A DNA stretch of 60,909 nucleotides from an uncultured Gammaproteobacteria bacterium (GTDB taxonomy: Bacteria > Patescibacteriota > Patescibacteriia > UBA9934 > GWF2-40-263), in NCBI GenBank assembly GCA_964538435.1, contig CAZIDX010000008.1:1-60909 (forward strand), in the 5' to 3' direction. Positions within the stretch are counted from its first letter, which is position 1, and each line of letters begins with the position of its first letter. Position numbers and translations under genes: made by a program. The notes beneath the pieces are model-generated. The model saw nothing but the letters and a program-made list of their open reading frames with translations, was not told where the DNA came from and made no database searches. Of the stretch, positions 3,641 to 44,227 are shown piece by piece.

Positions 3641-5458
3641 CTACTCCTTTTCTGAGAGCAGCTCCTCGAACGCTTCTTTTTCAATGGTTTCTTCTTTGAG
3701 AAGCTTGTTTGTAATAAGTTCCAGCTTCTCCCTTTCTGTTTCGAGTATATCACGAGCAACGTTCATTGCGCCATTCACAAGCTTCTCCACTTCTGCATCA
3801 ATCGCTTCTGCTGTCTTCTCAGAGTAGTTGCGCTGCTCATGGATCTCCTTGCCAAGGAAAACCATTTCCTGTGACTCACCAAACACGCGTGGTCCGAGTG
3901 TTTCACTCATTCCAAAGCGTGTAACCAATTCTCGAGCAATGCGTGTACACTTTTTCAGATCATCAGATGCTCCAGTGGTCACGTCTCCAAACACAGCCTT
4001 CTCAGCCATGAACCCTCCGAGCATTACGGACATATCATCAATAAACTGTGCTCGCTTGTGGAGCCGTCGATCTTCAGATGGAAGCTTCAGGGTGTATCCG
4101 CCAGCAGAACCACGAGAGATAATAGAAACTTTATGAACAGGATCTGCATGCTCAAGCATGTGAGCAACAAGTGCGTGCCCAGCTTCGTGGTATGCCGTAA
4201 TTTTCTTCTCTTCCTTGTTCATGACATAGCTCTTTCGTTCTGGTCCAAGAAGAACCTTCTCAATTGAGTCAAGAACGTCTTCCTGATTGATCTTTTTGTC
4301 ATTTCGTCGCGCAGCGCGAATAGCTGATTCGTTAAGTAGGTTCATGAGATCTGCCCCAGAGAACCCTGGGGTCCGTTCAGCAACACGCCGAAGGTTCACA
4401 TCATCATCAAATGGTTTGTCCTTTGCATGCACCTTCAAGATCGCCTCTCGCTCATTAATGTCTGGCATGTCAATCATGACACGTCGATCAAATCGACCAG
4501 GGCGAAGAAGGGCTGGATCAAGAACATCTGGTCGGTTTGTTGCGGCAATCACGATCACTCCAATATTTGGATCAAACCCATCCATCTCAACCAAGATCTG
4601 GTTGAGAGTCTGCTCACGCTCATCATGGCTTCCACCAAGACCAGCTCCACGCTGACGTCCAACCGCATCAATCTCATCAACGAAAACAATGCAAGGTGCA
4701 GCCTTTTTCGCGCGAGTAAAGAGATCTCGTACACGAGATGCACCAACTCCCACAAACATTTCAACAAACTCTGAGCCGCTCATGTGGAAAAATGGCACCT
4801 TTGCTTCTCCAGCAACCGCTCGAGCAAGAAGGGTTTTACCAGTTCCAGGTCGCCCCATAAGAAGTACGCCCTTTGGAAGCTTGGCTCCAAGATCTGAGAA
4901 TTTCTTTGGATCCATGAGGAACTCAACAACTTCCTGCAGCTCTTCCTTTGCTTCCTGCGCACCTGCAACATCCTTGAATGAAACTTTTTGCTTTGTATCT
5001 TTAATCTCTCGTGCATTACTCATTCCAAAACTCATCGCCTTGCTGTTTGCACCCTGCATCTGCCGGATCATAAACCAGAAGATGAGCACAAGAAGAAGGA
5101 GTGGAAGCAGGGAAGGAAGGATGACGCCCATGATGTATGAGCGAGTTGATCGATCCTCAACGCTGATATCAGCTGCGCGCAGCTGCTCAGAAGTGATTCC
5201 GTAGTCAATGAGTACTTCAGACAAAGAAGCACCAGATTCTTTTCGGGTGAGTTGCTTTGTGCCGTCATTGAGGGTGATGTTCACCTCAACACCTTCCATC
5301 TCAATAGATTCAACAACGCCGTTTTCAATCTCCTCAACAAGTGTTGCCATGGAGATGTCCTCAGTCTTCTCGTTGCTAAGTGTGTAGCTTGAAAAAAGCG
5401 CAGCCACAACAAGCACAACAAGAATCCCGAGAACAATATTTTTTGATAGTGGTTTCAT
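3641..5458 (-). CDS. ftsH: ATP-dependent zinc metalloprotease FtsH
   Basis: N-terminal TM helices, AAA+ Walker [19 protein letters not shown] and zinc motif HEAGHA. 605 aa. Confidence 0.95.
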
Positions 5459-15213: not shown

Positions 15214-15789
15214 ATGAAAATCGAATACGAAGCAACATTTGAAAACGTAAACAAAGAAGAGATTCGAGCTCGACTAAAAGAAGCAGGAGCCAAGCTGGAG
15301 AGAAAAGAGTTTCTTCAAAAAAGGGTGGTATTCAATCTCCCAAAGGGTCATGAGATTCCTGGAGGTTGGCTCAGGGTTCGGGATGAGGGAGATCGAATCA
15401 CCTGCAGCCTCAAAATCGTGGACGGAGATAAAATCGAGGATCAAAAAGAAATACAAATCGATGTGTCAGATTTTGATGAGGCAGTCAGATTACTCGAAAC
15501 ACTCGGTGCCGAGCGAAAGGCTTTTCAAGAGAGCAAGAGAGAGTTGTGGGTACTCGATGGAGTCGAAGTCATGATTGATGAATGGCCATGGCTCAGTCCG
15601 TTTATTGAGATAGAAGGGGAGAGTGAGGAGAAGGTTAGAGCTGTTGCTGAAAAACTCGGGTTTGATTATTCTAAGGCGCTTTTCTGTGCAGTGGGAGATC
15701 TCTACGCTCGTCAATTCAATATCACACTCGACCAGATCAACAATCAAACCCCACTCATCAAATTCGAGGATCCTTGCCCATTTGAGTAA
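15214..15789 (+). CDS. CYTH-domain protein (class IV adenylate cyclase / triphosphatase-like)
   Basis: N-terminal KIEYEATF (ExExK-like) motif and an overall alternating acidic/basic beta pattern typical of CYTH. 191 aa. Confidence 0.6.
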   Translation: MKIEYEATFENVNKEEIRARLKEAGAKLERKEFLQKRVVFNLPKGHEIPGGWLRVRDEGDRITCSLKIVDGDKIEDQKEIQIDVSDFDEAVRLLETLGAERKAFQESKRELWVLDGVEVMIDEWPWLSPFIEIEGESEEKVRAVAEKLGFDYSKALFCAVGDLYARQFNITLDQINNQTPLIKFEDPCPFE

Positions 15790-16848: not shown

Positions 16849-17544
16849 ATGCCCAAAGAAGATTTTTCTGATTTGGAACAAACCCTTGGTGTCACGTTTC
16901 AAAACAAAGATACGCTACGCCAAGCGCTTGTTCATCGCTCATACCTCAATGAGCACCCAGACTTTCCGCTCGGACACAACGAGCGACTCGAGTTCCTCGG
17001 CGACGCCGTGCTCGAGCTAGTCGTAACTGAAAACTTGTACGAAAATTACGAGAACCCAGAAGGGGAGCTCACAAACTGGCGCGCAGCACTAGTAAACTCA
17101 GAAATGCTAGCCAAGCTCTGCCACGAACTAGCAGCAGAGCCCTACCTCCACATGTCAAAAGGTGAGGCAAAGGATACAAAGTCAAAAGCGCGCAAGTACA
17201 TCCTAGCAAACGCCTTCGAGGCCATTATCGGAGCGATCTACCTTGACGCCGGATGGGAAGCAGCAAAAGTATTCATCACAGACCGCGTGCTCGCAGAACT
17301 TCCAGCAATCCTCAAAGACGAATCGTACATTGATCCAAAGTCTCGCTTCCAAGAAGCATCGCAAGAGCACCTTGGAATCACGCCTTCCTACAAGGTGATG
17401 TCAGAAACAGGTCCAGATCATGCAAAGGAGTTTGAAGTAGGTGTGTTCCTTGGCAAAGAAAAGGTTGCAGTAGGAAAAGGGACCTCAAAGCACGAAGCAC
17501 AAGTGGCAGCCGCACAAGCAGCAATCGAGCTCAAAGGCTGGTAA
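16849..17544 (+). CDS. rnc: Ribonuclease III
   Basis: Signature ERLEFLGDAVLELVV plus a C-terminal dsRBD (GPDHAKEFEVGV...GKGTSKHEAQVAAAQAA). Confidence 0.95.
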   Translation: MPKEDFSDLEQTLGVTFQNKDTLRQALVHRSYLNEHPDFPLGHNERLEFLGDAVLELVVTENLYENYENPEGELTNWRAALVNSEMLAKLCHELAAEPYLHMSKGEAKDTKSKARKYILANAFEAIIGAIYLDAGWEAAKVFITDRVLAELPAILKDESYIDPKSRFQEASQEHLGITPSYKVMSETGPDHAKEFEVGVFLGKEKVAVGKGTSKHEAQVAAAQAAIELKGW

Positions 17545-17613
17545 TCGTAACCCGGTTACGGAGTCTTTGCTAGAGTCAGTCAAAAAGAAAGCCGACCCCG
17601 CAATGGGTCGGTT

Positions 17614-18027
17614 TTAGATTGCAGCGAGCTCTGGAATACGGCCAAAGGCCACCAGGCGCTCTGCAGGGATGTTGCCGATCGGTGCTTCGATCACGCCAAG
17701 CGAAGAGTTCGCAGCATGAACGAATCGTCCAGACTCCGTGGTCATGCCAACATGCCCCACAAGATCGTGCTCGTGTCCCAAGCGTCGCTTGCCCTGACCA
17801 ACCATGAACACGAGGTCACAGGGTCTGAGGTCGTCCGGGTGAACTGGGATCGTGCGTTCAAACTGCTCCTGAGCGTAGCGTGGGAGCCGAATACCAGACT
17901 CAGCAAACACCCACCAGATCATCACAGAGCAGTTCACAATCTCTGGTGCATCCTCCGGCTGAGCACGAAGGATGTACTGCGCGCGACCAACCAGTGTCCG
18001 CGCCCGAGCTACGATTTCTTCGTGCAT
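17614..18027 (-). CDS. NlpC/P60 family cell-wall peptidase (GC-rich islet gene)
   Basis: Catalytic Cys context VNCSVMIWWVF, His GHVGMTT and FVHAANS. ATG at 18027 has GGAGGG upstream, because the track start at 18042 is TTG. Confidence 0.7.
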   Translation of the reverse strand: MHEEIVARARTLVGRAQYILRAQPEDAPEIVNCSVMIWWVFAESGIRLPRYAQEQFERTIPVHPDDLRPCDLVFMVGQGKRRLGHEHDLVGHVGMTTESGRFVHAANSSLGVIEAPIGNIPAERLVAFGRIPELAAI

Positions 18028-18075
18028 AAGGAGTCCCTCCAAATCGTACGTCGATAAGAATAGGGGATTTCATTC

Positions 18076-18117
18076 CCAACGTCCAGCGTCCAACGTCCAG
18101 CGTCCAATGCTGGACGT
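18076..18117 (+). repeat. 14-nt periodic TCCAA array (A-A-B) ending in a TCCAA-loop hairpin
   Basis: ccaacgtccagcgt occurs twice (18076-18103), then ccaatgctggacgt. 18093-18102 pairs with 18108-17 (10 bp, one GU). The loop is tccaa at 18103-18107. Confidence 0.8.
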
Positions 18118-18126
18118 CGAGGAGGA

Positions 18127-18155
18127 TTGACAAAACCACCAAAATACGCTTAAAT
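18127..18155 (+). promoter_or_regulatory. Promoter of the 18275..19747 gene
   Basis: TTGACA (18127-32), 17 nt spacer, TTAAAT (18150-55). Confidence 0.6.
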
Positions 18156-18274
18156 CCATTTCTAGCCGGCGCCGCCGGTTTAACGCTGAGAATGGACTTG
18201 CGATGCTCAGGCAACCCCTGAGATTGCGCCCGGAACCGCCGGGATCCGCAGCTCAGCACAACACAGGAGGAAGC

Positions 18275-19747
18275 ATGGCTTCCCGAAGAGACGACCGAGA
18301 AGGTGTGCGAAGCGAATATCTCGCCGCGCTCGCCGCTGAGGTGGCTCTTGCCGCCAAACCCGAAACCCTGTTTGCCGAGCGTACCTCGCTCGACATCAAG
18401 GGACGAACCCAAGCTCTCCAGGACGGACAAAGCGCCCTGCGCGAGCCTCTGGTGTCCGCGCACGTGGCAGCTGAGTTTCGCTCGGTTCCGGAGTGGATCA
18501 TCCATCCCAACACCGGCGAGATCTTCTTCGTTGGTGTGAAGATGACTGACATGGGTGAGTCCAGCGCTCGAGTCTACAAGGTGGGTCCCTGTGGCCCGAT
18601 CCCGCTCGACCAGCCAAACGACACCAAGCGCGTAAACGGGCTCCACTTCCCACTGGGAAGCAACGAGCCTGCCTGGACCGCTGTTCTCCAGTCCTCTCTC
18701 TGCGGAAAGGGAAGCAAGTCGCTCCAGTTCATCTGGGGAGACGACGTCTTCCGCCTCGGCTGGCCCAAGGCGAGTGAGGCTCGAGCCGCGACCTACCACC
18801 ATGCCCTGCACGCTTACGTGGATGTAAATGCTCGTAAGCACCTGATCGACCTGAATCTCTGGCGTCAAAGCAAGGTTGTCAGCTATTCAACCAAAGGGAT
18901 TCTCGATCTCTATGCGGCGTATGCTGGTGACGACGAACATGCCGAACTCGAGTACGCCACGGTCATCGAGGGGCACTTGATCCTGGTGCTAACCACGATC
19001 CTGCCTGATGAGCGAGCGCGCCTGATCTGGTGGTTCACACCAGAAGGAGATCGTTGCGAGCACAAGCTTCCACTTGGCAGCAACGTCAGTCGCGACGGGT
19101 TCCTCATCCGCAACGGGCTCCTTCACTTCGTGCGAACAGGCTACATGGGGTACACCCCCTCTCAGTTGACAGAGGACGGTCTGATCGAGGGGAACCGCAG
19201 CTGGCTCATGCCCGAAGGTGGATACATCCGTCGGGTAGGTAACCGGGTCATGCTCATCCAGCGCATGGGGATTGGTGAGCAGAACCCCAGCTTCTGCGTC
19301 ACAGACATGCTCTCTGGTCTCCGATACGGTGGCGAAGAGCACGTCATCCAGGGTGAGTTCAAGGACATCCAGTTGAACCACAACGCCATCCTGCTCCTTT
19401 GGGTGCGTGGAGGCATTCCTCGCTGGACGCGCTGGCCCATCGTCGCGAGCAAGCTGCTCGAGGTGGGGCCAGAAGAGGCTCTCGAGAACGAGTGGGACAT
19501 CGATGAGGGGACGCAGGCCGAACGTCTGGTGGTCTACCGCGACAACATCGGCTTCGTGGTCCACTCAAGCTACACGCACCCCAAGCTTGTCTGGAGCAGG
19601 CATTCTGGTTTGACCCAGGAGCTGCGCAGCCACAACGACAAGCCTGTCTGGGTCCCGGCCTATGGTCGGTTCGTGGTCGTGAGCTTTGGCTCCGGCACGA
19701 TCTACGTTCGCGCGTACAAGCCCCCGTTCGAATACGAATCGAACTAG
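18275..19747 (+). CDS. Hypothetical 490-aa protein (GC-rich islet gene)
   Basis: ATG at 18275 is preceded by AGGAGG (18265-70). The track start at 18203 has no SD. The product is Trp/Gly-rich with a beta-strand-like periodicity. I recognise no domain. Confidence 0.55.
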   Translation: MASRRDDREGVRSEYLAALAAEVALAAKPETLFAERTSLDIKGRTQALQDGQSALREPLVSAHVAAEFRSVPEWIIHPNTGEIFFVGVKMTDMGESSARVYKVGPCGPIPLDQPNDTKRVNGLHFPLGSNEPAWTAVLQSSLCGKGSKSLQFIWGDDVFRLGWPKASEARAATYHHALHAYVDVNARKHLIDLNLWRQSKVVSYSTKGILDLYAAYAGDDEHAELEYATVIEGHLILVLTTILPDERARLIWWFTPEGDRCEHKLPLGSNVSRDGFLIRNGLLHFVRTGYMGYTPSQLTEDGLIEGNRSWLMPEGGYIRRVGNRVMLIQRMGIGEQNPSFCVTDMLSGLRYGGEEHVIQGEFKDIQLNHNAILLLWVRGGIPRWTRWPIVASKLLEVGPEEALENEWDIDEGTQAERLVVYRDNIGFVVHSSYTHPKLVWSRHSGLTQELRSHNDKPVWVPAYGRFVVVSFGSGTIYVRAYKPPFEYESN

Positions 19748-19777
19748 GCCCGCGCAACCGAGCCAGGCTCGGCATAC

Positions 19778-19803
19778 AGGAGTTCCTTCGGGAACTCCTT
19801 TTC
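19778..19803 (+). terminator. Intrinsic terminator after the 18275..19747 gene
   Basis: Stem aggagttcc / ggaactcct with loop ttcg, followed by tttc. Confidence 0.7.
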
Positions 19804-19832
19804 AAATACTCGTTATTCATTTCAAAGTTTAA

Positions 19833-19920
19833 CTTCCAACGTCTGACTTCCAACGTCTGACTTCCAACGTCTGACTTCCAAAGTCAGGCTTCCAAAGTCA
19901 GGCTTCCAAAGTCAGGCTTC
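19833..19920 (+). repeat. Tandem array of six 14-nt units: 3x cttccaacgtctga then 3x cttccaaagtcagg
   Basis: Exact 14-nt period. Each unit has an invariant TCCAA plus a 9-nt variable part that is partly reverse-complementary between the two halves. The central hairpin is ctgact-tccaa-agtcag (19871-19887). Confidence 0.85.
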
Positions 19921-20044
19921 TAATTTCTCAAACAGAAAACCCCCGCGCGAGCAGACAATATCGACATCGAATGTCCATGTGGTGTTGGTGGGGTATTTAT
20001 GTGGTTGAAACAAAAAAACGACCAGTATGAACTGATCGTTTTTG

Positions 20045-20119
20045 TGGTACACCGGGTGGGGTTCGAACCCACGGCCAAGAGATTAAGAGTCTCCTGCTCT
20101 ACCACTGAGCTACCGGTGC
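20045..20119 (-). tRNA. tRNA-Lys (anticodon CTT), CCA encoded
   Basis: Hand-folded cloverleaf. Acceptor gcaccgg/ccggtgt, D arm gctc-agtggta-gagc, anticodon arm ggaga-CTCTTAA-tctct, T arm gtggg-ttcgaac-cccac, then A-CCA. Confidence 0.85.
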
Positions 20120-20161
20120 ATAGAAAAATTGTGGATCAACGGCAATAGTATGCCAAGAATA

Positions 20162-20190
20162 TTGACAATCGTCAATATCTGCGGTAGTAT
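20162..20190 (+). promoter_or_regulatory. Promoter of tRNA-Arg
   Basis: TTGACA (20162-67), 17 nt spacer, TAGTAT (20185-90). It lies 28 nt upstream of the mature 5' end. Confidence 0.6.
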
Positions 20191-20218
20191 CTTGCTGTGA
20201 ACAAAACCTTCACCCTGT

Positions 20219-20295
20219 GCGGGTGTAGCTCAGCTGGATAGAGCGCGTGGCTTCGGACCACGAGGTCGGGGGTTCGAGTCCTCCCGCCCGCACCA
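20219..20295 (+). tRNA. tRNA-Arg (anticodon TCG), CCA encoded
   Basis: Acceptor gcgggtg/cgcccgc, D arm gctc-agctggata-gagc, anticodon arm cgtgg-CTTCGGA-ccacg, T arm ggggg-ttcgagt-cctcc, then A-CCA. Confidence 0.9.
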
Positions 20296-20346
20296 CAAAA
20301 ACTACCAGAAATCTGGTGGTTTTTGTTTTGTCTGAGTTTTTATGCC

Positions 20347-20373
20347 AACATCCAGTGTCCAACACTGGGTGTT
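20347..20373 (+). repeat. TCCAA-loop hairpin (11-bp stem)
   Basis: aacatccagtg-TCCAA-cactgggtgtt with one GU pair. It has the same 14-nt spacing from an upstream CCAA as the arrays at 18076 and 19833. Confidence 0.75.
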
Positions 20374-20449
20374 GAATATTGTAAAACCCCCCAACTTTTG
20401 CTGAGGTTTTTTGTTTGTCAAAACATAACAAACTTTTTGTTGCAAACCC

Positions 20450-20478
20450 TTGACTTTCCACTGATTTTGTGGTAAATT
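20450..20478 (+). promoter_or_regulatory. Promoter of the LysM-vWA gene
   Basis: TTGACT (20450-55), 17 nt spacer, TAAATT (20473-78). Confidence 0.6.
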
Positions 20479-20550
20479 ACTCTCTTCCTACGGGCCAATC
20501 TAGACACACTAAACCCCTTTACCCCGTATGGATTCGAAGAGGAGAATCTG

Positions 20551-21444
20551 ATGCAGCAGTTCCTGCAGAACGTCCGCGCCCGTCTGGGCCGTCTGTCCCC
20601 CCGTCAGCGTCGCATCGGCACCATCGTCGGCATCTTCGTCCTGGCCTTCATGCTCGCCCTCGTCCTGTGGCCGAGCGGTGACGGCGCCATCGAGGTCGAC
20701 CCGGCCGACACCCAGCACAACGAGGTCACCCACGTCGTGCAGTCCGGCGAGTACCTGATTGCCATCGCCAAGGAGCACCAGGTGCCCTGGCAGGCGGTCG
20801 CCACCCGCAACCAGACCGATCTGGACCAGCTCGCCAACGAGCGGTGCGAGAAGCTCTCCGAGCGCTACCGCAATCGCACCAACGGTGGACACTACTGCGC
20901 CGAGCAGTTGGTCTACCAGGGGCGCAAGATGTACGGCCTCAACTCGCTCCAGCCTGGCGACAAGGTCATCATCCCGCTCACCAGTCACCCCGTGGTCGAC
21001 TCGGTGATGCAGTCCATCCCGGGCCAGTCCATCGCCATCGTGGTCGATGACACCGGCTCCATGGGCAACGACATCAGCGAGGTCAGCGCGTGGTACATGC
21101 GCGCCACCGGCCAGTTCGGCAAGGACATCGCCACGGTAGTCCTGTACGCCGACGGGTTCACGCGCGAGTACGAGTCCACCGGCCAGGTCCAGTTCCGGAC
21201 CACCGGTTCGGTCGAGACCACGCGCGCCGCCCTGGAACAGGCAGCAGCCTCGAACCCGGACGCCATCGTGCTCGTCAGCGACGAGCCCGGCGACGACTGG
21301 AAGGGCTTCCGCGGCCTGGACCTCCCGCCCGTCTACTCCCACTCGCTCGAGGAGGAGTCGCACGACAACCTGCGCAAGGTGTCGCGCAAGACCGGTGGCG
21401 AGTTCATGCGCCCGCCCCTGCACGCCGTGATCGCGTCCCGCTGA
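20551..21444 (+). CDS. Membrane-anchored LysM plus von Willebrand factor A domain protein (GC-rich islet gene)
   Basis: GAGGAG SD, N-terminal TM (IGTIVGIFVLAFMLALVLW), LysM (HVVQSGEYLIAIAKEHQVPWQAVATRNQ) and vWA MIDAS-like IAIVVDDTGSMGND. Confidence 0.7.
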   Translation: MQQFLQNVRARLGRLSPRQRRIGTIVGIFVLAFMLALVLWPSGDGAIEVDPADTQHNEVTHVVQSGEYLIAIAKEHQVPWQAVATRNQTDLDQLANERCEKLSERYRNRTNGGHYCAEQLVYQGRKMYGLNSLQPGDKVIIPLTSHPVVDSVMQSIPGQSIAIVVDDTGSMGNDISEVSAWYMRATGQFGKDIATVVLYADGFTREYESTGQVQFRTTGSVETTRAALEQAAASNPDAIVLVSDEPGDDWKGFRGLDLPPVYSHSLEEESHDNLRKVSRKTGGEFMRPPLHAVIASR

Positions 21445-21534
21445 CACGACGGTAACGAGCCCTGCGCTCGACAAAGCACCCTGTGAGGTGACTCTGTCGT
21501 CGCGCAGGGTGTTTTGTTTGTATGGCTCATTCGG

Positions 21535-21563
21535 TTGACAAAACAGTAAAATAGTGGTATCTT
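21535..21563 (+). promoter_or_regulatory. Promoter of the 21591..21896 gene
   Basis: TTGACA (21535-40), 17 nt spacer, TATCTT (21558-63). Confidence 0.6.
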
Positions 21564-21590
21564 ATGCTGTCCCCAACACCCGAGGACATC

Positions 21591-21896
21591 ATGAGACACC
21601 TCGTGGTCCTAACGCTCGTCAACGTAGTTCATGCGCAAGCCCAGTACGCGTGTGACGATCCGATCTGCATCAACTGGGAAAACATCTTCATCCTCCTCTT
21701 ATTCGCAGCATTCCTGGTGGTCTGCGCGATCGTCATTGCTTGCCTTGCTGGAATTCTGTACGTGCTGATGACGATCATCCTCCTGATCGTTCATCTGTTC
21801 AGGTGCTGCACCAGCGCCAAGTACAGACGCGAGTACAAAGAAGAAGTCGCTCGCAGCAAAGCAGAGCGAGAAGAAGCGAAACGCCAGGGCGACTAG
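21591..21896 (+). CDS. Small secreted/membrane protein (signal peptide plus one or two TM, basic tail)
   Basis: ATG at 21591 lies after GAGGA. The track start at 21564 falls immediately after the -10 box. MRHLVVLTLVNVVHAQA is signal-like. A long hydrophobic segment and the tail KYRREYKEEVARSKAEREEAKRQ follow. Confidence 0.5.
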   Translation: MRHLVVLTLVNVVHAQAQYACDDPICINWENIFILLLFAAFLVVCAIVIACLAGILYVLMTIILLIVHLFRCCTSAKYRREYKEEVARSKAEREEAKRQGD

Positions 21897-21980
21897 CCCA
21901 CAACGCACGTCCCCGCACGTGCAACGAAACACCCAATCGGTGACTCGTTGCTGTGCGGGTGTTTTGTTTCCTTTGAATAC

Positions 21981-22009
21981 TTGACAACCGAGTGAATAAT
22001 GATTAGTTT
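21981..22009 (+). promoter_or_regulatory. Promoter of the 22037..22261 gene
   Basis: TTGACA (21981-86), 17 nt spacer, TAGTTT (22004-09). Confidence 0.5.
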
Positions 22010-22036
22010 AGTAAGCTTGCTCAATGGAGGTGGAAG

Positions 22037-22261
22037 TTGGCAATCCTGTTCACGATTGCGTTCGTGATGCTCGCTGTGGTCGGCTACAAGCTGTCCTGGC
22101 ACATCGGTCTGATCATTCTGTTCTCAGGCCTCTCGTTCGCTTGCCTGATCTTCGCGATCTCCCGCAGGCGCAAGTACTCTGTCCAGATCAGTTGGATGGC
22201 GGAAAACCTCGACGACCTCATCCCAGACTGCGGCGATATCGACATCGACCTCTGGGATTGA
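22037..22261 (+). CDS. Small two-TM membrane protein with acidic C-terminus
   Basis: TTG start is preceded by GGAGGTGG (22026-33). AILFTIAFVMLAVVGY and IGLIILFSGLSFACLIFAI are hydrophobic helices. Confidence 0.45.
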   Translation: MAILFTIAFVMLAVVGYKLSWHIGLIILFSGLSFACLIFAISRRRKYSVQISWMAENLDDLIPDCGDIDIDLWD

Positions 22262-22329
22262 CTCCCTCTGCTGCGCTATGGTTCTCCCTGGCGCTTTTTC
22301 AATTAGAAAAGCGAGTCGGCGTAGACTCG

Positions 22330-23019
22330 CTAAGGGTGGGGAAGACGCGCAGGGGATCCCATGCGACGCCAGGTCGTAAACGGCACACGCACGCGGCAGG
22401 TGCGATCGCGCTGTCTGCACTGCGCAAAGTCAGTGCTTCCAGTCTTTGCAAATGAACACACGCAGGTGGCTTGGCAGATCCCAGGTGGGAGCTGATCAAA
22501 ACTGATCATCTGCATGCCGTGGCGTTGGCCAATGTGAATCGCCTTGATGTTCGTGGTCGTTCCCAGGATATTGGAGTTGCGGTAGCGATCCAGGAACAGG
22601 CGGTAGAGCACGTCCCCAATCGGCATGGAGCGCGCGCTACCGCTCTTGAATCGATACTCACGCACAACCACGTACGTACCGAGCTCGTACCACATCTCGC
22701 CTCGATCGTCTCGCTCAAGCTCCCAAAGGATGATGCAGCCAACCACACAGTTGTGAGATGTACGATCCACCGCGATCACCACGCGCCCATCGTACGCAGC
22801 AGGCTCAAGCTCAGCTCGGGTCTTGGTCAGAAGATGTCTCTCCTCGCGCGTGATGTCTTCGAGCTCGTTATACCAGCTTTCATCGAGGGCGAGCAAGCGC
22901 TCACCCCACAAGTAGTCGATCCCAGGTGTACCCCGACGATCCAGGGCGAATCGAACAGCCGCTCCCAAACGACTGGTGCGGATTGAAGTATTCAGATCAG
23001 TAGCCATCATCCCAAACAT
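22330..23019 (-). CDS. GNAT-fold-like acyltransferase with Cys-rich C-terminus (weak call; GC-rich islet gene)
   Basis: ATG at 23019 has AAGGAGAG upstream. The beta4-alpha3-beta5-like stretch ELGTYVVVREYRF...IGDVLYRLFL...NILGTTTN resembles the GNAT core. The motifs are not canonical. Confidence 0.45.
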   Translation of the reverse strand: MFGMMATDLNTSIRTSRLGAAVRFALDRRGTPGIDYLWGERLLALDESWYNELEDITREERHLLTKTRAELEPAAYDGRVVIAVDRTSHNCVVGCIILWELERDDRGEMWYELGTYVVVREYRFKSGSARSMPIGDVLYRLFLDRYRNSNILGTTTNIKAIHIGQRHGMQMISFDQLPPGICQATCVCSFAKTGSTDFAQCRQRDRTCRVRVPFTTWRRMGSPARLPHP

Positions 23020-41140: not shown

Positions 41141-44100
41141 ATGAGTTACAACCACCAAGAGATTGAAAAGAAATGGCAGGATCGTTGGTTTTCAACCGAC
41201 GTCTTTCACGCCAAGAACGACTCTGATAAAGAGAAGTTTTATTGCTTGATTGAGTTCCCATACCCATCGGGGGCTGGCCTGCACGCTGGGCACCCACGAA
41301 GCTACACAGCGCTCGACGTGGTTGCGCGCAAGCAGCGTCATCTTGGCAAGAACGTTCTCTATCCAATTGGATGGGATGCGTTTGGGCTTCCAACAGAAAA
41401 CTACGCCATCAAGACCGGACGTAAGCCGCAGGATATTACAAAAGAAAATACAGACAAATTCCGTGAGCAGCTTAAGGGTCTTGGAATCTCTTTTGATTGG
41501 TCGCGCGAGATCAACACCACAGACCCGGAATACTACAAGTGGACGCAGTGGATGTTCCTTGAGTTTTTCAAAGCAGGCCTCACGTACAAATCAAATCTTG
41601 CTATCAACTGGTGTCTCTCTTGCAAGATTGGGCTTGCAAACGAAGAAGTGGTAAACGGTGCCTGTGAGCGCTGTGGTGGGGAAGTAGAAAAGCGGGACAA
41701 AGAGCAATGGATGATTGAGATCACAAAATACGCCGAGGAGCTTCTATCAGGACTCGATGAGGTCAATTATCTTGAAAAGATTAAAACGCAGCAACGCAAC
41801 TGGATCGGAAAGAGCGAAGGAGCCATGGTGGACTTCGAGGTTGCTGACCCACTGGGGCCTGTCACACCAGTGATCCGAGTGTTCACCACACGCCCAGACA
41901 CACTTTTTGGTGCAACCTACATGGTGCTCGCTCCAGAGCACGAGCTGGTTGAGCAGATTACGAGCAGTGAAAAGATGGGAGAGGTGAGCGAGTACGTCAA
42001 AGAAGCAAAAGCAAAAGCAGATATTGACCGAACGAACGACGAGAAAGAAAAAACAGGAGTCTTCACGGGTAGCTATGCAATCAACCCAGTCAATGGAGAA
42101 AAGATTCCAATCTGGGTAGCTGACTACGTAATGATGGGCTACGGAACAGGAGCCATCATGGCCGTCCCAGCCCACGACGAGAGGGACTTTGCATTTGCGA
42201 CCAAGTACGAGATCCCAATCATCAAGGTGGTTGAGCCTCCAGTGCTCCAGAACGTTATCAACCCAGACATCGGCATCGCCCACGCCATGCAGTCTGACAT
42301 CAAGATCGAACATGAATGCTACACAGGCGAAGGAAAGGCGATTAACTCTGGAGAGTTCAACGGACGTTCAACCGAAGAGTTCAAGACCGCCATCACAAAA
42401 TGGCTCGAAGAAAAAGAACTCGGAAAAGCCGCAACAAACTACAAGCTCCGAGACTGGGTCTTCTCCCGCCAGCGCTACTGGGGTGAGCCAATCCCGCTTG
42501 TGTACTGCCAGGCATGTCACAATAAGACAATTGAAAGAGATAATGTTGTAATCTTTCACGGCTGGGAAGACACATCCGAGCACACATTCATCCCAGGGCT
42601 CCGAGAAGAGCTCGAGAAAAAGAACTACAACACCCACGCCTTTGACGCTCCAAATCCAATGGAGCCGAATTTTGATGAGTGGTGGAAGTTTGCAAACGAA
42701 AAACTCGAAGGAATCAACACAGAAAACCTCGTACTCGTCGGTCACAGCATGGGTGGTGGGCTTGCGTGTAAGCTCGCAGAGAAATACAAAGTCAAAAAAC
42801 TTGTTCTTGTAGCTCCGGTTGGGTTCAAAGGTTCAGATGAGTACTTTGCTCAGTTCAAAGATGAGCTCACAGAGGATGAAATGAACACCTTTCGCTCTTA
42901 CATGGACCGAGAACTTGATATTAAAAAAGTGAAAGAGAACGTTGATGAAATCACTGTTATCTTTGGAGAGGATGACAAGTGGATCTCAAAGGAAGTTCAG
43001 GATTTCTACAAAACAAACTTTGGTGACGTGGCACAGATTGTCACCTGGCCAGGTGTAGGTCATATGGGGGGAGAAGAAGGAGCCAAGTTTGCTACAAGAA
43101 TCTCAAAGTATTTTGACACAAAAGACTTCTCAGGCTGGATCCCAGTTCCAGAAGCCGAGCTTCCTGTCACGCTCCCAGACGTAGAAAAGTACGAGCCAAC
43201 AGATTCAGGCGAGTCTCCGCTTGCAGTCATCGAGGACTGGGTGAATACAACCTGTCCTGAGTGTTCAGGGCCAGCCAAGCGAGAAACTGACACCATGCCA
43301 AACTGGGCAGGATCAAGCTGGTACTTCCTCGCCTACGCAATGAAACTCACAAACGATTTCAAATTCCCAATGAGCTCGTACGCGGATGTTCTGAAAAAAT
43401 GGATGCCTGTCGATTTCTACAACGGTGGAAACGAACACATCACACTTCACCTTCTTTACTCACGCTTTTGGAACAAGGTGATGCATGATCGTGGTCATGT
43501 GCCAGTGTCAGAGCCTTACAAGCGACGTCATGGTCACGGCCTTGTGCTTGCAGAGGATGGCACGAAGATGAGTAAGTCAAAGGGGAATGGAGTAGATCCA
43601 GATGAAGTCATTCGAGAGTACGGAGCTGATGCGCTGCGCATGTACATCATGTTCATGGGTCCATTTGAAGAACCAGCACCATTTAACATGAGCGGACTCA
43701 TCGGCGTGCGCCGCTTCCTCGACAAAGTCATGCGCTATGTTTCAGATTGGAACGAGAGTGGTGCAGAAGACCTCGGAAAGATTATCGAACCTCACATCAA
43801 AAAGGCTTCAGATGATATTGATAACTTTAGGTTTAACACAGCAGTTTCTAGTTTCATGAAGCTCTTCAACGAGCTCGGCGACAAAGCTTGCACCAAAGAT
43901 CAGCTCAAGCGGATCCTCACCGTGCTTTGCCCATTTGCTCCTCATATCGCAAACGAGTGCTGGGAAATGATCGGGGAGACAGGTCTTGTTGAAGAACAAG
44001 CTTGGCCAGAGTTTGACGAGAGTCTGCTCATCCGCGACACCATCGAAATGGGAGTCCAAGTAAACGGAAAAGTCCGTGCCAGCATCCAGCTTGCTCCAGA

Positions 44101-44227
44101 CGCAAGCGAGGAGGAAGCAAAAAAGATCGCGCTCGCAGAAGAAAATATTCAAAAACATCTTGAAGGCAAAGAGATTGTAAAGATCATCTACGTACCAGGT
44201 CGCATCCTAAACATTGTCGTGAAATAG
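41141..44227 (+). CDS. leuS: Leucyl-tRNA synthetase carrying an inserted alpha/beta-hydrolase domain
   Basis: HIGH (HAGH), KMSKS, CP1 editing domain (TRPDTLFGATYMVLAPEH) and zinc knuckles. The product is 1028 aa because of an insert of about 205 aa at residues ~460-665. Confidence 0.95.
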   Translation: MSYNHQEIEKKWQDRWFSTDVFHAKNDSDKEKFYCLIEFPYPSGAGLHAGHPRSYTALDVVARKQRHLGKNVLYPIGWDAFGLPTENYAIKTGRKPQDITKENTDKFREQLKGLGISFDWSREINTTDPEYYKWTQWMFLEFFKAGLTYKSNLAINWCLSCKIGLANEEVVNGACERCGGEVEKRDKEQWMIEITKYAEELLSGLDEVNYLEKIKTQQRNWIGKSEGAMVDFEVADPLGPVTPVIRVFTTRPDTLFGATYMVLAPEHELVEQITSSEKMGEVSEYVKEAKAKADIDRTNDEKEKTGVFTGSYAINPVNGEKIPIWVADYVMMGYGTGAIMAVPAHDERDFAFATKYEIPIIKVVEPPVLQNVINPDIGIAHAMQSDIKIEHECYTGEGKAINSGEFNGRSTEEFKTAITKWLEEKELGKAATNYKLRDWVFSRQRYWGEPIPLVYCQACHNKTIERDNVVIFHGWEDTSEHTFIPGLREELEKKNYNTHAFDAPNPMEPNFDEWWKFANEKLEGINTENLVLVGHSMGGGLACKLAEKYKVKKLVLVAPVGFKGSDEYFAQFKDELTEDEMNTFRSYMDRELDIKKVKENVDEITVIFGEDDKWISKEVQDFYKTNFGDVAQIVTWPGVGHMGGEEGAKFATRISKYFDTKDFSGWIPVPEAELPVTLPDVEKYEPTDSGESPLAVIEDWVNTTCPECSGPAKRETDTMPNWAGSSWYFLAYAMKLTNDFKFPMSSYADVLKKWMPVDFYNGGNEHITLHLLYSRFWNKVMHDRGHVPVSEPYKRRHGHGLVLAEDGTKMSKSKGNGVDPDEVIREYGADALRMYIMFMGPFEEPAPFNMSGLIGVRRFLDKVMRYVSDWNESGAEDLGKIIEPHIKKASDDIDNFRFNTAVSSFMKLFNELGDKACTKDQLKRILTVLCPFAPHIANECWEMIGETGLVEEQAWPEFDESLLIRDTIEMGVQVNGKVRASIQLAPDASEEEAKKIALAEENIQKHLEGKEIVKIIYVPGRILNIVVK

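Follow-up and report, generated by a model that had tools for sequence, protein, structure and literature searches.

Introduction

Heptameric simple sequence repeats (SSRs) are over-represented in bacterial intergenic DNA. Their units are genome-specific (STRR of Calothrix and Nostoc, GGGAATC of Xanthomonas, GGGGAYT of Nostoc, and TAACTGA of Beggiatoaceae, Cyanobacteria and Bacteroidetes), they are sometimes found in inverted pairs, and their function and spread are unexplained (PMC4692102; PMC4679880). Here we describe three short repeat sites, arrays A and B and site C, in a 60,909-nt stretch of DNA (the window) that is a chromosome segment of an uncultured seawater Candidatus Uhrbacteria (Patescibacteria, the Candidate Phyla Radiation or CPR). 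An earlier reading of the letters (the original prediction) had pointed to array B, between the terminator of orf490, a gene for a 490-aa protein, and a tRNA-Lys gene. It described a fixed TCCAA, a 14-nt period and direct copies followed by inverted copies that could fold as a rod or hairpin, and it reported the same design at two nearby sites. The sequence, Tandem Repeats Finder (TRF), a hairpin scan and folding all agree with this description, the placement of array B is right, and the two other sites are real (18075-18117 and 20345-20374).

The arrays resemble heptanucleotide SSRs in their 7-nt (here 7+7) tandem period, in being intergenic, in differing in length and sequence between close relatives, and perhaps in having a genome-specific unit at several loci; some known heptanucleotide SSRs, for which no function is known, are also inverted pairs able to form stem-loops. 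They differ in that the working unit is a 14-mer of two diverged heptamers, present in 2-6 copies at 3-4 loci rather than at >100, and in that an inverted copy with one common TCCAA loop closes every array. TAACTGA repeats are mostly just upstream of a start codon, and no array here is so placed. The arrays are real and non-random, and comparison of the sequences leads us to favor, on balance, the view that they are young products of slippage and template switching that belong to the heptamer SSR class and lie in unconstrained spacers. Most likely, they have no sequence-specific function.

Structure of the arrays

Array B is made of two blocks of three identical units. The left block (plus strand, 19833..19874) has three copies of CTTCCAACGTCTGA (19833-19846, 19847-19860 and 19861-19874; direct-repeat family D1), and the right block (plus strand, 19875..19916) has three copies of CTTCCAAAGTCAGG (19875-19888, 19889-19902 and 19903-19916), also found by the direct-repeat scan. 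A degenerate seventh half-unit, CTTCTAA, can be read at 19917..19923 on the same strand. TRF reported a period of 14 with 6.5 copies, 92% matches and a score of 119. The right unit differs from the left at 3 of 14 positions (C8A, T12A and A14G), and its AAGTCAGGC is the reverse complement of GTCTGACTT (exactly, AAGTCAGAC) save for one transition. The core, GTC-T-GAC, is a near-palindrome, and the change of the central T to A renders the right unit complementary to the left.

Array B is predicted to fold into a rod (plus strand, 19841..19917). RNA and DNA folding both gave three 9-bp helices (GUCUGACUU/AAGUCAGGC), a CCA triloop (19878-19880) and two 5x5 internal loops, and not the 6-bp helices of the original prediction; in the RNA fold the triloop is closed by a U-A pair and the internal loops are symmetric. 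The fold of the plus-strand RNA had an energy of -36.5 kcal/mol (z = -6.9), that of the minus strand was weaker (z = -3.9), and DNA parameters gave the same fold at -15.8 kcal/mol (z -3.7).

Array A (plus strand, 18075..18117) consists of CCCAACGTCCAGCG, TCCAACGTCCAGCG, TCCAA and an inverted arm, TGCTGGACGT, and was recovered from the sequence and by TRF, the repeat scan, the hairpin scan and folding. Its hairpin (18093-18117) has 10 bp and a TCCAA loop, and TRF described the array both as period 7 with 4.6 copies (18076-18107, CCAACGT) and as period 14 with 2.3 copies. The 14-mer is a dimer of heptamers, CGTCCAG and CGTCCAA. Site C (plus strand, 20345..20374) consists of CCAACATCCAGTG, TCCAA and CACTGGGTGTTG; it was seen in the sequence, as inverted repeat I11, and in the hairpin scan and the fold. 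Its hairpin has 12-13 bp with a TCCAA or CCA loop, the fold giving 13 bp and a CCA triloop. The predicted order of direct copies and then an inverted copy is found at all three sites, with the reservation that site C has only about 1.5 direct units. The inverted arm of A, like that of C, copies the 9-12 nt before it straight in reverse, with a single G.T, and both sites contain the half-site CCAGYG-TCCAA-YRCTGG upstream of a promoter.

The arrays stand out from the rest of the window. TCCAA-N9-TCCAA occurs seven times against 0.30 expected, and none of 100 shuffles reached seven. The only long hairpins with an exact TCCAA loop in the 60.9 kb are those of A, B and C, all on the plus strand, with stems of 10, 8 and 12 bp, and a scan of the window for further unit-like sequence found nothing beyond these three sites. 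One of the seven matches, at 17334, is an unrelated coding coincidence inside the RNase III open reading frame (ORF): positions 17334-17386 hold TCCAAAGTCTCGCTTCCAA and an inverted partner within the coding sequence and are not part of the repeat family. A string similar to TCCAAAGTCTCGCTTCCAA is present at position 14083 of L018, a locus from the neighbourhood of gyrA.

The three hairpins are related to one another. As the original prediction stated, the N9 parts (CGTCCAGCG, CGTCTGACT and CATCCAGTG) differ between sites; they are nevertheless related (A and C share 7 of 9 positions, A and B 5 of 9), and a 7-nt sub-period runs through the unit. When the hairpins were aligned on the loop, 29 of 30 cells were paired and 6 of 10 pairs had changed on both sides, with the TCCAA loop and the arm start ACRTC invariant. 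G.T on the plus strand accounts for three of the four non-Watson-Crick cells. This bias is suggestive of strand-specific pairing but is not significant (about 1 in 8 by chance, p about 0.125).

All three sites are in DNA that is probably not transcribed, or transcribed only by read-through, judging from the promoter- and terminator-like sequences around them. Array A lies between two divergent -35 boxes, those of an NlpC/P60 hydrolase gene (minus strand, 17614..18027, start at 18027) and of orf490, whose promoter-like site (plus strand, 18127..18155; TTGACA, 17 nt, TTAAAT) has its -35 TTGACA 9 nt beyond the end of the array. Array B lies between convergent terminators. On its left is a terminator-like hairpin of orf490 that we read from the sequence (plus strand, 19778..19803; AGGAGTTCC-TTCG-GGAACTCCT then TTTTC, with a UUCG loop); the terminator scan did not flag it because its tail has only four T. 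On its right, the scan found a terminator-like hairpin followed by GGTTTTCTGT (minus strand, 19942..19955) and then the terminator (minus strand, 20014..20043) of tRNA-Lys (CTT; minus strand, 20045..20119). The first CGTCTGA of array B is 93 nt past the orf490 stop. Site C lies between the terminator (20295-20326) of tRNA-Arg (TCG; plus strand, 20219..20295) and the next promoter-like site (plus strand, 20450..20478; TTGACT, 17 nt, TAAATT), which belongs to a gene for a LysM-domain protein and is 76 nt 3' of site C.

The hairpins are not intrinsic terminators, and a role as termination signals, one of those that had been suggested for them, is not supported. Like intrinsic terminators and hairpin clusters they are stable stem-loops in 3' spacers, but reading of the sequence and the terminator scan found no U-tract or T-run 3' of any of the three, none was reported by the scan, and B and C are behind complete terminators. 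A nearly identical hairpin is present as an ordinary intrinsic terminator on an IMG/VR phage contig (L233, 2536-2558), where CGTCCAGTG-TCCAA-CACTGGACG, a design like that of A and C, is followed by a T-run; it is probably a chance match.

The arrays match no Rfam family and, as the original prediction held, they are not a CRISPR array. In an Rfam search of the window only the two tRNAs reached the gathering threshold and the arrays were without a match even at E up to 5; the best sub-threshold match on array B was CC0196 (14.7 bits, E = 4.9). A CRISPR array has repeats of 23-50 nt and unique spacers of similar length, and the units here are 14 nt and contiguous.

Comparison with relatives

The arrays are absent from the closest relative of the locus. 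The sole homologue of orf490 (plus strand, 18275..19747) among 5.8 billion proteins is P0002, which has 53% identity and is encoded on L205 (GCA_002998485.1). The gene order of L205 is that of the window, namely RNase III, NlpC/P60 (minus strand), orf489, tRNA-Lys (minus strand) and tRNA-Arg (plus strand). Neither a tandem repeat nor a TCCAA hairpin is present in L205 at any of the three orthologous places. It has kept the TTGACA box and, by alignment, the whole orf490 5' leader downstream of it, as well as both terminators (that of orf490 has the counterpart GGAGTCTCT-ACG-GAGAGACTCC-TTTTCG) and the tRNAs. Because L205 has the islet with orf490 but not the arrays, the arrays are younger than the islet and are not its borders, and because they are missing from L205, the flanking genes do not need them to be expressed.

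The place of array A can be compared directly. L205 reads GGGGATTT-GAG-TCAACGTGCCA where the window reads GGGGATTT-CAT-TCCCAACGTCCAG, and the divergent -35 regions are spaced by 13 nt in L205 and 47 nt in the window. The comparison is suggestive of, but does not prove, growth of array A out of local sequence. Comparison with L205 shows no target-site duplication at A.

The arrays are also missing from more distant genomes. They were absent from the syntenic spot in 80 Patescibacteria gyrA loci. In more distant Uhrbacteria the tRNA pair is kept after gyrA-nusB-rnc, with other genes or no genes at the position of the islet, and without arrays; in L002, for example, a different gene (359 aa) is at this spot by tRNA-Lys/tRNA-Arg. 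Because relatives lack the arrays, an outcome that the original prediction had itself named as evidence against it, we regard them as largely a local, lineage-specific expansion.

The spacer between orf490 and tRNA-Lys is strongly structured in both genomes (z -7.1 in the window and z -6.5 in L205, with six to seven different hairpins), and the two spacers do not align. In the L205 spacer (3735-3882, between orf489 and tRNA-Lys), four hairpins have palindromes of the GCTNAGC or GTCTGAGAC type at their centres. The spacer also has CCGTCTGAGACG about 97 nt past the stop, close to the position of the first CGTCTGA of array B in the window, and a second copy of a motif of the orf490 leader, CTTGCGATGCT.

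Copies elsewhere and repeats of period 7

Few copies of the unit were seen. Across the window and the metagenome contigs it was found at three loci in the window and on one contig of covarying depth. A and C had no second copy in the deepest metagenome assembly. B-like arrays were on three further metagenome contigs, with different flanks (30-nt flanks seen). One of these has the B-type left/right junction, and its depth tracks that of the window contig in three samples (ratios of 1.18, 1.17 and 0.70); this covariation makes it a probable fourth copy within the genome of the window. The depth of the other two does not covary, one of them has a CGTCTAAC variant typical of other phyla, and both are probably from other organisms. 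Nearly the same unit, CGTCTAAC TTCCAA, is also present in Chloroflexi, Bacteroidota and others. The junction of array B gave three isolated chance matches only in JGI metagenome contigs, and the A/C hairpin pattern gave four chance matches only, all coding, in 185,579 species genomes, along with the L233 phage terminator described above.

Tandem repeats of period 7 are common in the CPR. We surveyed 1.39 Mb of unselected CPR loci around gyrA (L002-L081) and found that 7 was the commonest tandem-repeat period (62 arrays, in contrast to 0 in shuffles). Period 14 gave 41 arrays against 7.3 in shuffles, period 6 gave 3, and period 8 gave 25. Arrays of period 7 and 14 were enriched about 8-fold outside ORFs, and 34 of the 103 had an inverted partner within 150 nt (examples are L015 4881-4952, L055 1417-1457 and L062 15567-15656). 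Heptamer arrays showed no strand or context bias of a kind that could hint at a function, and in these loci they had no preference for convergent spacers.

The shared TCCAA does not define a family across phyla. We scanned species genomes for four TCCAA at 14-nt spacing, and the matches listed were almost only NNTCCAA heptamer repeats, from many phyla and several of them followed by inverted copies. In the pattern-free units of 105 heptamer arrays among these matches, the positions of TCCAA differed at 0.09-0.16 per position and the NN dinucleotides differed from the neighbouring unit at 0.18-0.29, where a factor of two is expected when two diverging units are compared; all 16 NN types occurred. 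Because the core is no better conserved than the variable positions and NN is spread over all 16 types, a cross-phylum TCCAA heptamer family is an artefact of the search pattern.

A scan of species genomes with the array B unit gave 25 loci, 15 of them in Chloroflexi, with heterogeneous CTTCCAA/CGTCTAA/CCTCCAA arrays and none of the B-type design. Many were paired with an upstream TTGGANN arm, and many ended just before a start codon. In L091 and L206-L229 (mostly Chloroflexi), NNTC[CT]AA arrays (CTTCCAA, CGTCTAA, CCTCCAA and CATCCAA), often after an inverted TTGGANN arm, are in many cases 0-40 nt before a sense ATG, often without a Shine-Dalgarno sequence (L215, L216, L218 and L225), with GGAGG-like sequence abundant in one arm and CCTCC-like sequence in the other. 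In Candidatus Doudnabacteria (L207, about 100-200; MFEK01000002.1) a heptamer hairpin, TTGGAG ATTAGAA ATTGGAG ... TCTAAC TTCCAAC TTCCAAC GTCTAAC TTCCAA, is in the 23S rRNA gene. The Rfam LSU model matched 1031 nt there to 804 model positions, leaving about 227 nt of insertions, and the hairpin looks like an expansion segment or intervening sequence of heptamer repeats.

Origin of the arrays

The three sites have several traits of STRR-like repeats. Arrays A and B are head-to-tail units of 7 nt or a small multiple of it, all three sites are in spacers between genes, and presence differs between close relatives (L205 and the more distant Uhrbacteria are without the arrays). We suggest that the sites are recent, lineage-specific expansions of one heptamer-derived 14-nt unit (C-R-T-C-Y-R-R / Y-K-T-C-C-A-A). 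Going by the sequences, the head-to-tail copies would have arisen by replication slippage, and the inverted copy of the variable part by an intramolecular template switch (quasi-palindrome formation or correction), so that each array would end in a hairpin with the unconverted TCCAA as its loop. At array B, one template switch and one transition would have produced a unit variant complementary to its neighbours, and slippage would then have amplified each variant three times, giving the AAABBB pattern that local slippage produces. A single switch on the left arm would account for two of the three differences between left and right units, and the remaining one, a transition, leaves a G.T.

This origin also bears on the compensatory variation that had been claimed for the arrays. 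Pairing is indeed kept through double changes, as described above, but it is no evidence of selection because template switching makes inverted copies that are necessarily complementary. At most, array B may add stable hairpins to a spacer that is hairpin-rich in L205 too, and may insulate tRNA-Lys from convergent read-through.

Several observations weigh against an origin by local slippage and template switching in unconstrained DNA. In-situ slippage leaves unexplained the presence of three arrays in 2.3 kb with a common TCCAA, 14-nt unit and strand. The three hairpins have kept pairing in 29 of 30 cells through changes on both sides at 6 of 10 pairs, and the excess of plus-strand G.T among their non-Watson-Crick cells is what selection on an RNA or single-stranded DNA fold would give (p about 0.125). 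The fact that both convergent spacers are structured in spite of unalignable sequence hints that hairpins there are selected. Finally, the contig of covarying depth is probably a fourth copy in the same genome, and the array was then probably copied elsewhere as a whole.

Alternative explanations

The arrays, B above all, could be selected as stem-loops that insulate neighbouring transcription units, by blocking antisense read-through into tRNA-Lys, stalling RNA polymerase or shielding 3' ends from exonucleases, with periodicity merely the cheapest route to hairpins. Array B is exactly between a plus-strand terminator and a minus-strand terminator-like hairpin, and the structured but unalignable spacers of the window and L205 and the G.T wobbles favoring the plus strand fit such a role; clusters of hairpins have been proposed as termination devices (PMC8355165). 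However, A and C precede promoters and do not follow genes in need of insulation, and site C is behind the complete terminator of tRNA-Arg. Taking into account also the missing U-tracts, the absence of arrays from all three places in L205, and the lack of preference of CPR heptamer arrays for convergent spacers, we consider selection for insulation unlikely.

The arrays could alternatively be a dispersed element like REPs (repetitive extragenic palindromes) or MITEs (miniature inverted-repeat transposable elements), or a protein-binding array, in which a trans-acting factor recognises the TCCAA-loop hairpin with an arm starting in CGTC. The factor would be a structure-specific protein that binds single-stranded DNA or RNA, a transposase encoded elsewhere, or a regulator, and the direct copies would be iterons. 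The loop, the arm start (ACRTC) and the strand common to the three copies, the probable fourth copy with the same junction, and the half-site that A and C share upstream of two promoters all speak for this possibility, and CGTC-tagged REPs without a dedicated transposase are known (PMC3733652). The arrays are like REPs, BIMEs (bacterial interspersed mosaic elements) and CGTC-tagged REPs in being short extragenic palindromes between unidirectional or convergent genes, with CGTC at the arm start in A and B, a CCA motif, and no dedicated transposase nearby.

Several features do not fit a dispersed element, and we consider it rather improbable. CGTC-tagged REPs have an unpaired tag at one end, a stem of 8-9 bp that starts with A/T pairs, a loop of 4-5 nt, a 3' CCA tail, and tens to hundreds of copies (PMC3733652). 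In the arrays, CGTC is base-paired inside the stem, the stems are without A/T first pairs, CCA is in the loop and not in a tail, and tandem direct copies precede the hairpin. The 60.9 kb hold only three copies, neither A nor C has a second copy in the metagenome, and the searches of species genomes and JGI metagenomes gave only chance matches. No integrase, transposase or HUH protein (including RAYT/Y1) is encoded among the proteins of the window, no target-site duplication is visible at A, and array A appears locally seeded. With the tag paired, CCA in the loop and few copies seen, the arrays are not CGTC-tagged REPs. The more specific proposal, that the TCCAA-loop hairpin and its phased direct copies form a lineage-specific element copied or maintained in untranscribed spacers by a structure-specific trans-acting factor, is doubtful. 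If true, a minimal CPR genome would have a REP-like system that lacks a RAYT, and this could help to explain the abundance of heptamer-phased direct-plus-inverted arrays in Patescibacteria. Origins of rolling-circle replicons also have direct repeats immediately 5' of a hairpin with an invariant loop, in contrast to which these sites have no Rep/HUH gene, are three in 2.3 kb of chromosome core, and are absent in L205.

The original prediction also considered recombination or attachment sites bounding a mobile islet with orf490 by the tRNA genes. A and B do flank orf490 in direct orientation, the G+C content of orf490 is about 60% against about 47% in the flanks, and the spot by tRNA-Lys/tRNA-Arg is variable among Uhrbacteria (the 359-aa gene of L002). 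This explanation is largely refuted by L205, which has the same islet gene and gene order without any array. In addition, the window encodes no recombinase, site C is outside the islet, and the arrays share no sequence with tRNA 3' ends, and we regard attachment sites as very improbable.

Integron attC sites deserve mention here. They too are imperfect hairpins with conserved ends and variable stems that adjoin variable genes, GTCCAAC fits the inverse core RYYYAAC, and the end of site C, GTTGAAT, fits GTTRRRY. But at 43 and 30 nt, A and C fall short of the 55-140 nt of attC sites, and A and B keep TCCAA direct in both arms without pairing to GTTGGA. We rejected attC/CALIN by motif, length and context: the match is partial and at C only, the window encodes no integrase, and orf490 is served by a promoter and a terminator of its own.

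An assembly artefact (a collapsed or chimeric repeat), to which the break of the k=31 Logan contigs inside array B might point and which bears on the 3+3 copy number, taken from the window assembly, is hardly credible given that independently assembled contigs of three seawater runs contain the left block, its junction with the right block and the right block itself, each at 0-1 mismatch, and that A and C are within long metagenome contigs with no variation seen.

Five other candidates were set aside. A DNA-uptake sequence came to mind with ComEC and PilB in the window and the resemblance of CGTCTGA to the Neisseria DUS core, but there are only three sites in 61 kb. A cluster of DnaA boxes or an origin of replication (oriC) near gyrA (TGTCCAA versus TGTCCACA) does not fit arrays that are perfectly tandem and absent in L205. 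A CsrA sponge from the minus strand (six UUGGAAG) would have no promoter, and the array is behind the tRNA-Lys terminator. For a 6S-like rod the array is too short and has no Rfam match. Finally, orf490 as an HUH enzyme or recombinase is contradicted by the lack of domain matches and by an orthologue that exists without arrays.

Neighbouring genes and other observations

The window carries the housekeeping genes for PilB, FtsH, ribosomal protein S1, GyrA, NusB, RNase III, TruB, IF-2, leucyl-tRNA synthetase (LeuRS), ComEC and nucleoside diphosphate kinase (NDK). Its GyrA is 82% identical to that of the best species representatives, and Logan assemblies with window DNA came from four seawater metagenome runs only. 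The protein encoded by orf490 has no Pfam domain.

A variable patch of high G+C content (57-68%) adjoins the conserved tRNA-Lys/tRNA-Arg pair (window 17600-23000, L002 14700-15800 and L205 2172-7213). Its genes are cell-wall-related or orphans (NlpC/P60, orf490 and a LysM protein, with CHAP in L205), and the gene set differs by species. Between gyrA and nusB, a CYTH gene (15214-15789) is likewise restricted to the lineage of the window. An inserted alpha/beta (serine) hydrolase domain (residues about 469-648) separates the editing domain of the leucyl-tRNA synthetase (41141-44227, 1028 aa) from the remainder of the enzyme.

The 5' leader of orf490 (window 18150-18274; L205 2043-2171) is much better conserved than the protein (53% amino acid identity) and is nearly identical between window and L205 over CGCTGAGAATGGACTTGCGATGCTCAGG-AACCCCTGAG-TTGC. 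Its predicted fold has multiple stems with 31 pairs (-41.5 kcal/mol), and three pairs, in two flanking hairpins, have changed on both sides. The leader had no match in Rfam. Its conservation and predicted fold make it a candidate for a new cis-regulatory RNA.

Implications

At this single locus, a striking and seemingly designed periodic hairpin can be explained by slippage and template switching in unconstrained spacer DNA. The locus also shows that 'compensatory' pairing within inverted repeats cannot be taken as evidence of selection. The literature leaves open why period 7 is favored and by what route a single unit reaches several loci of one genome (PMC4692102; PMC4679880), and small CPR genomes could be tractable for studying both the preference for period 7 and the spread of the unit.

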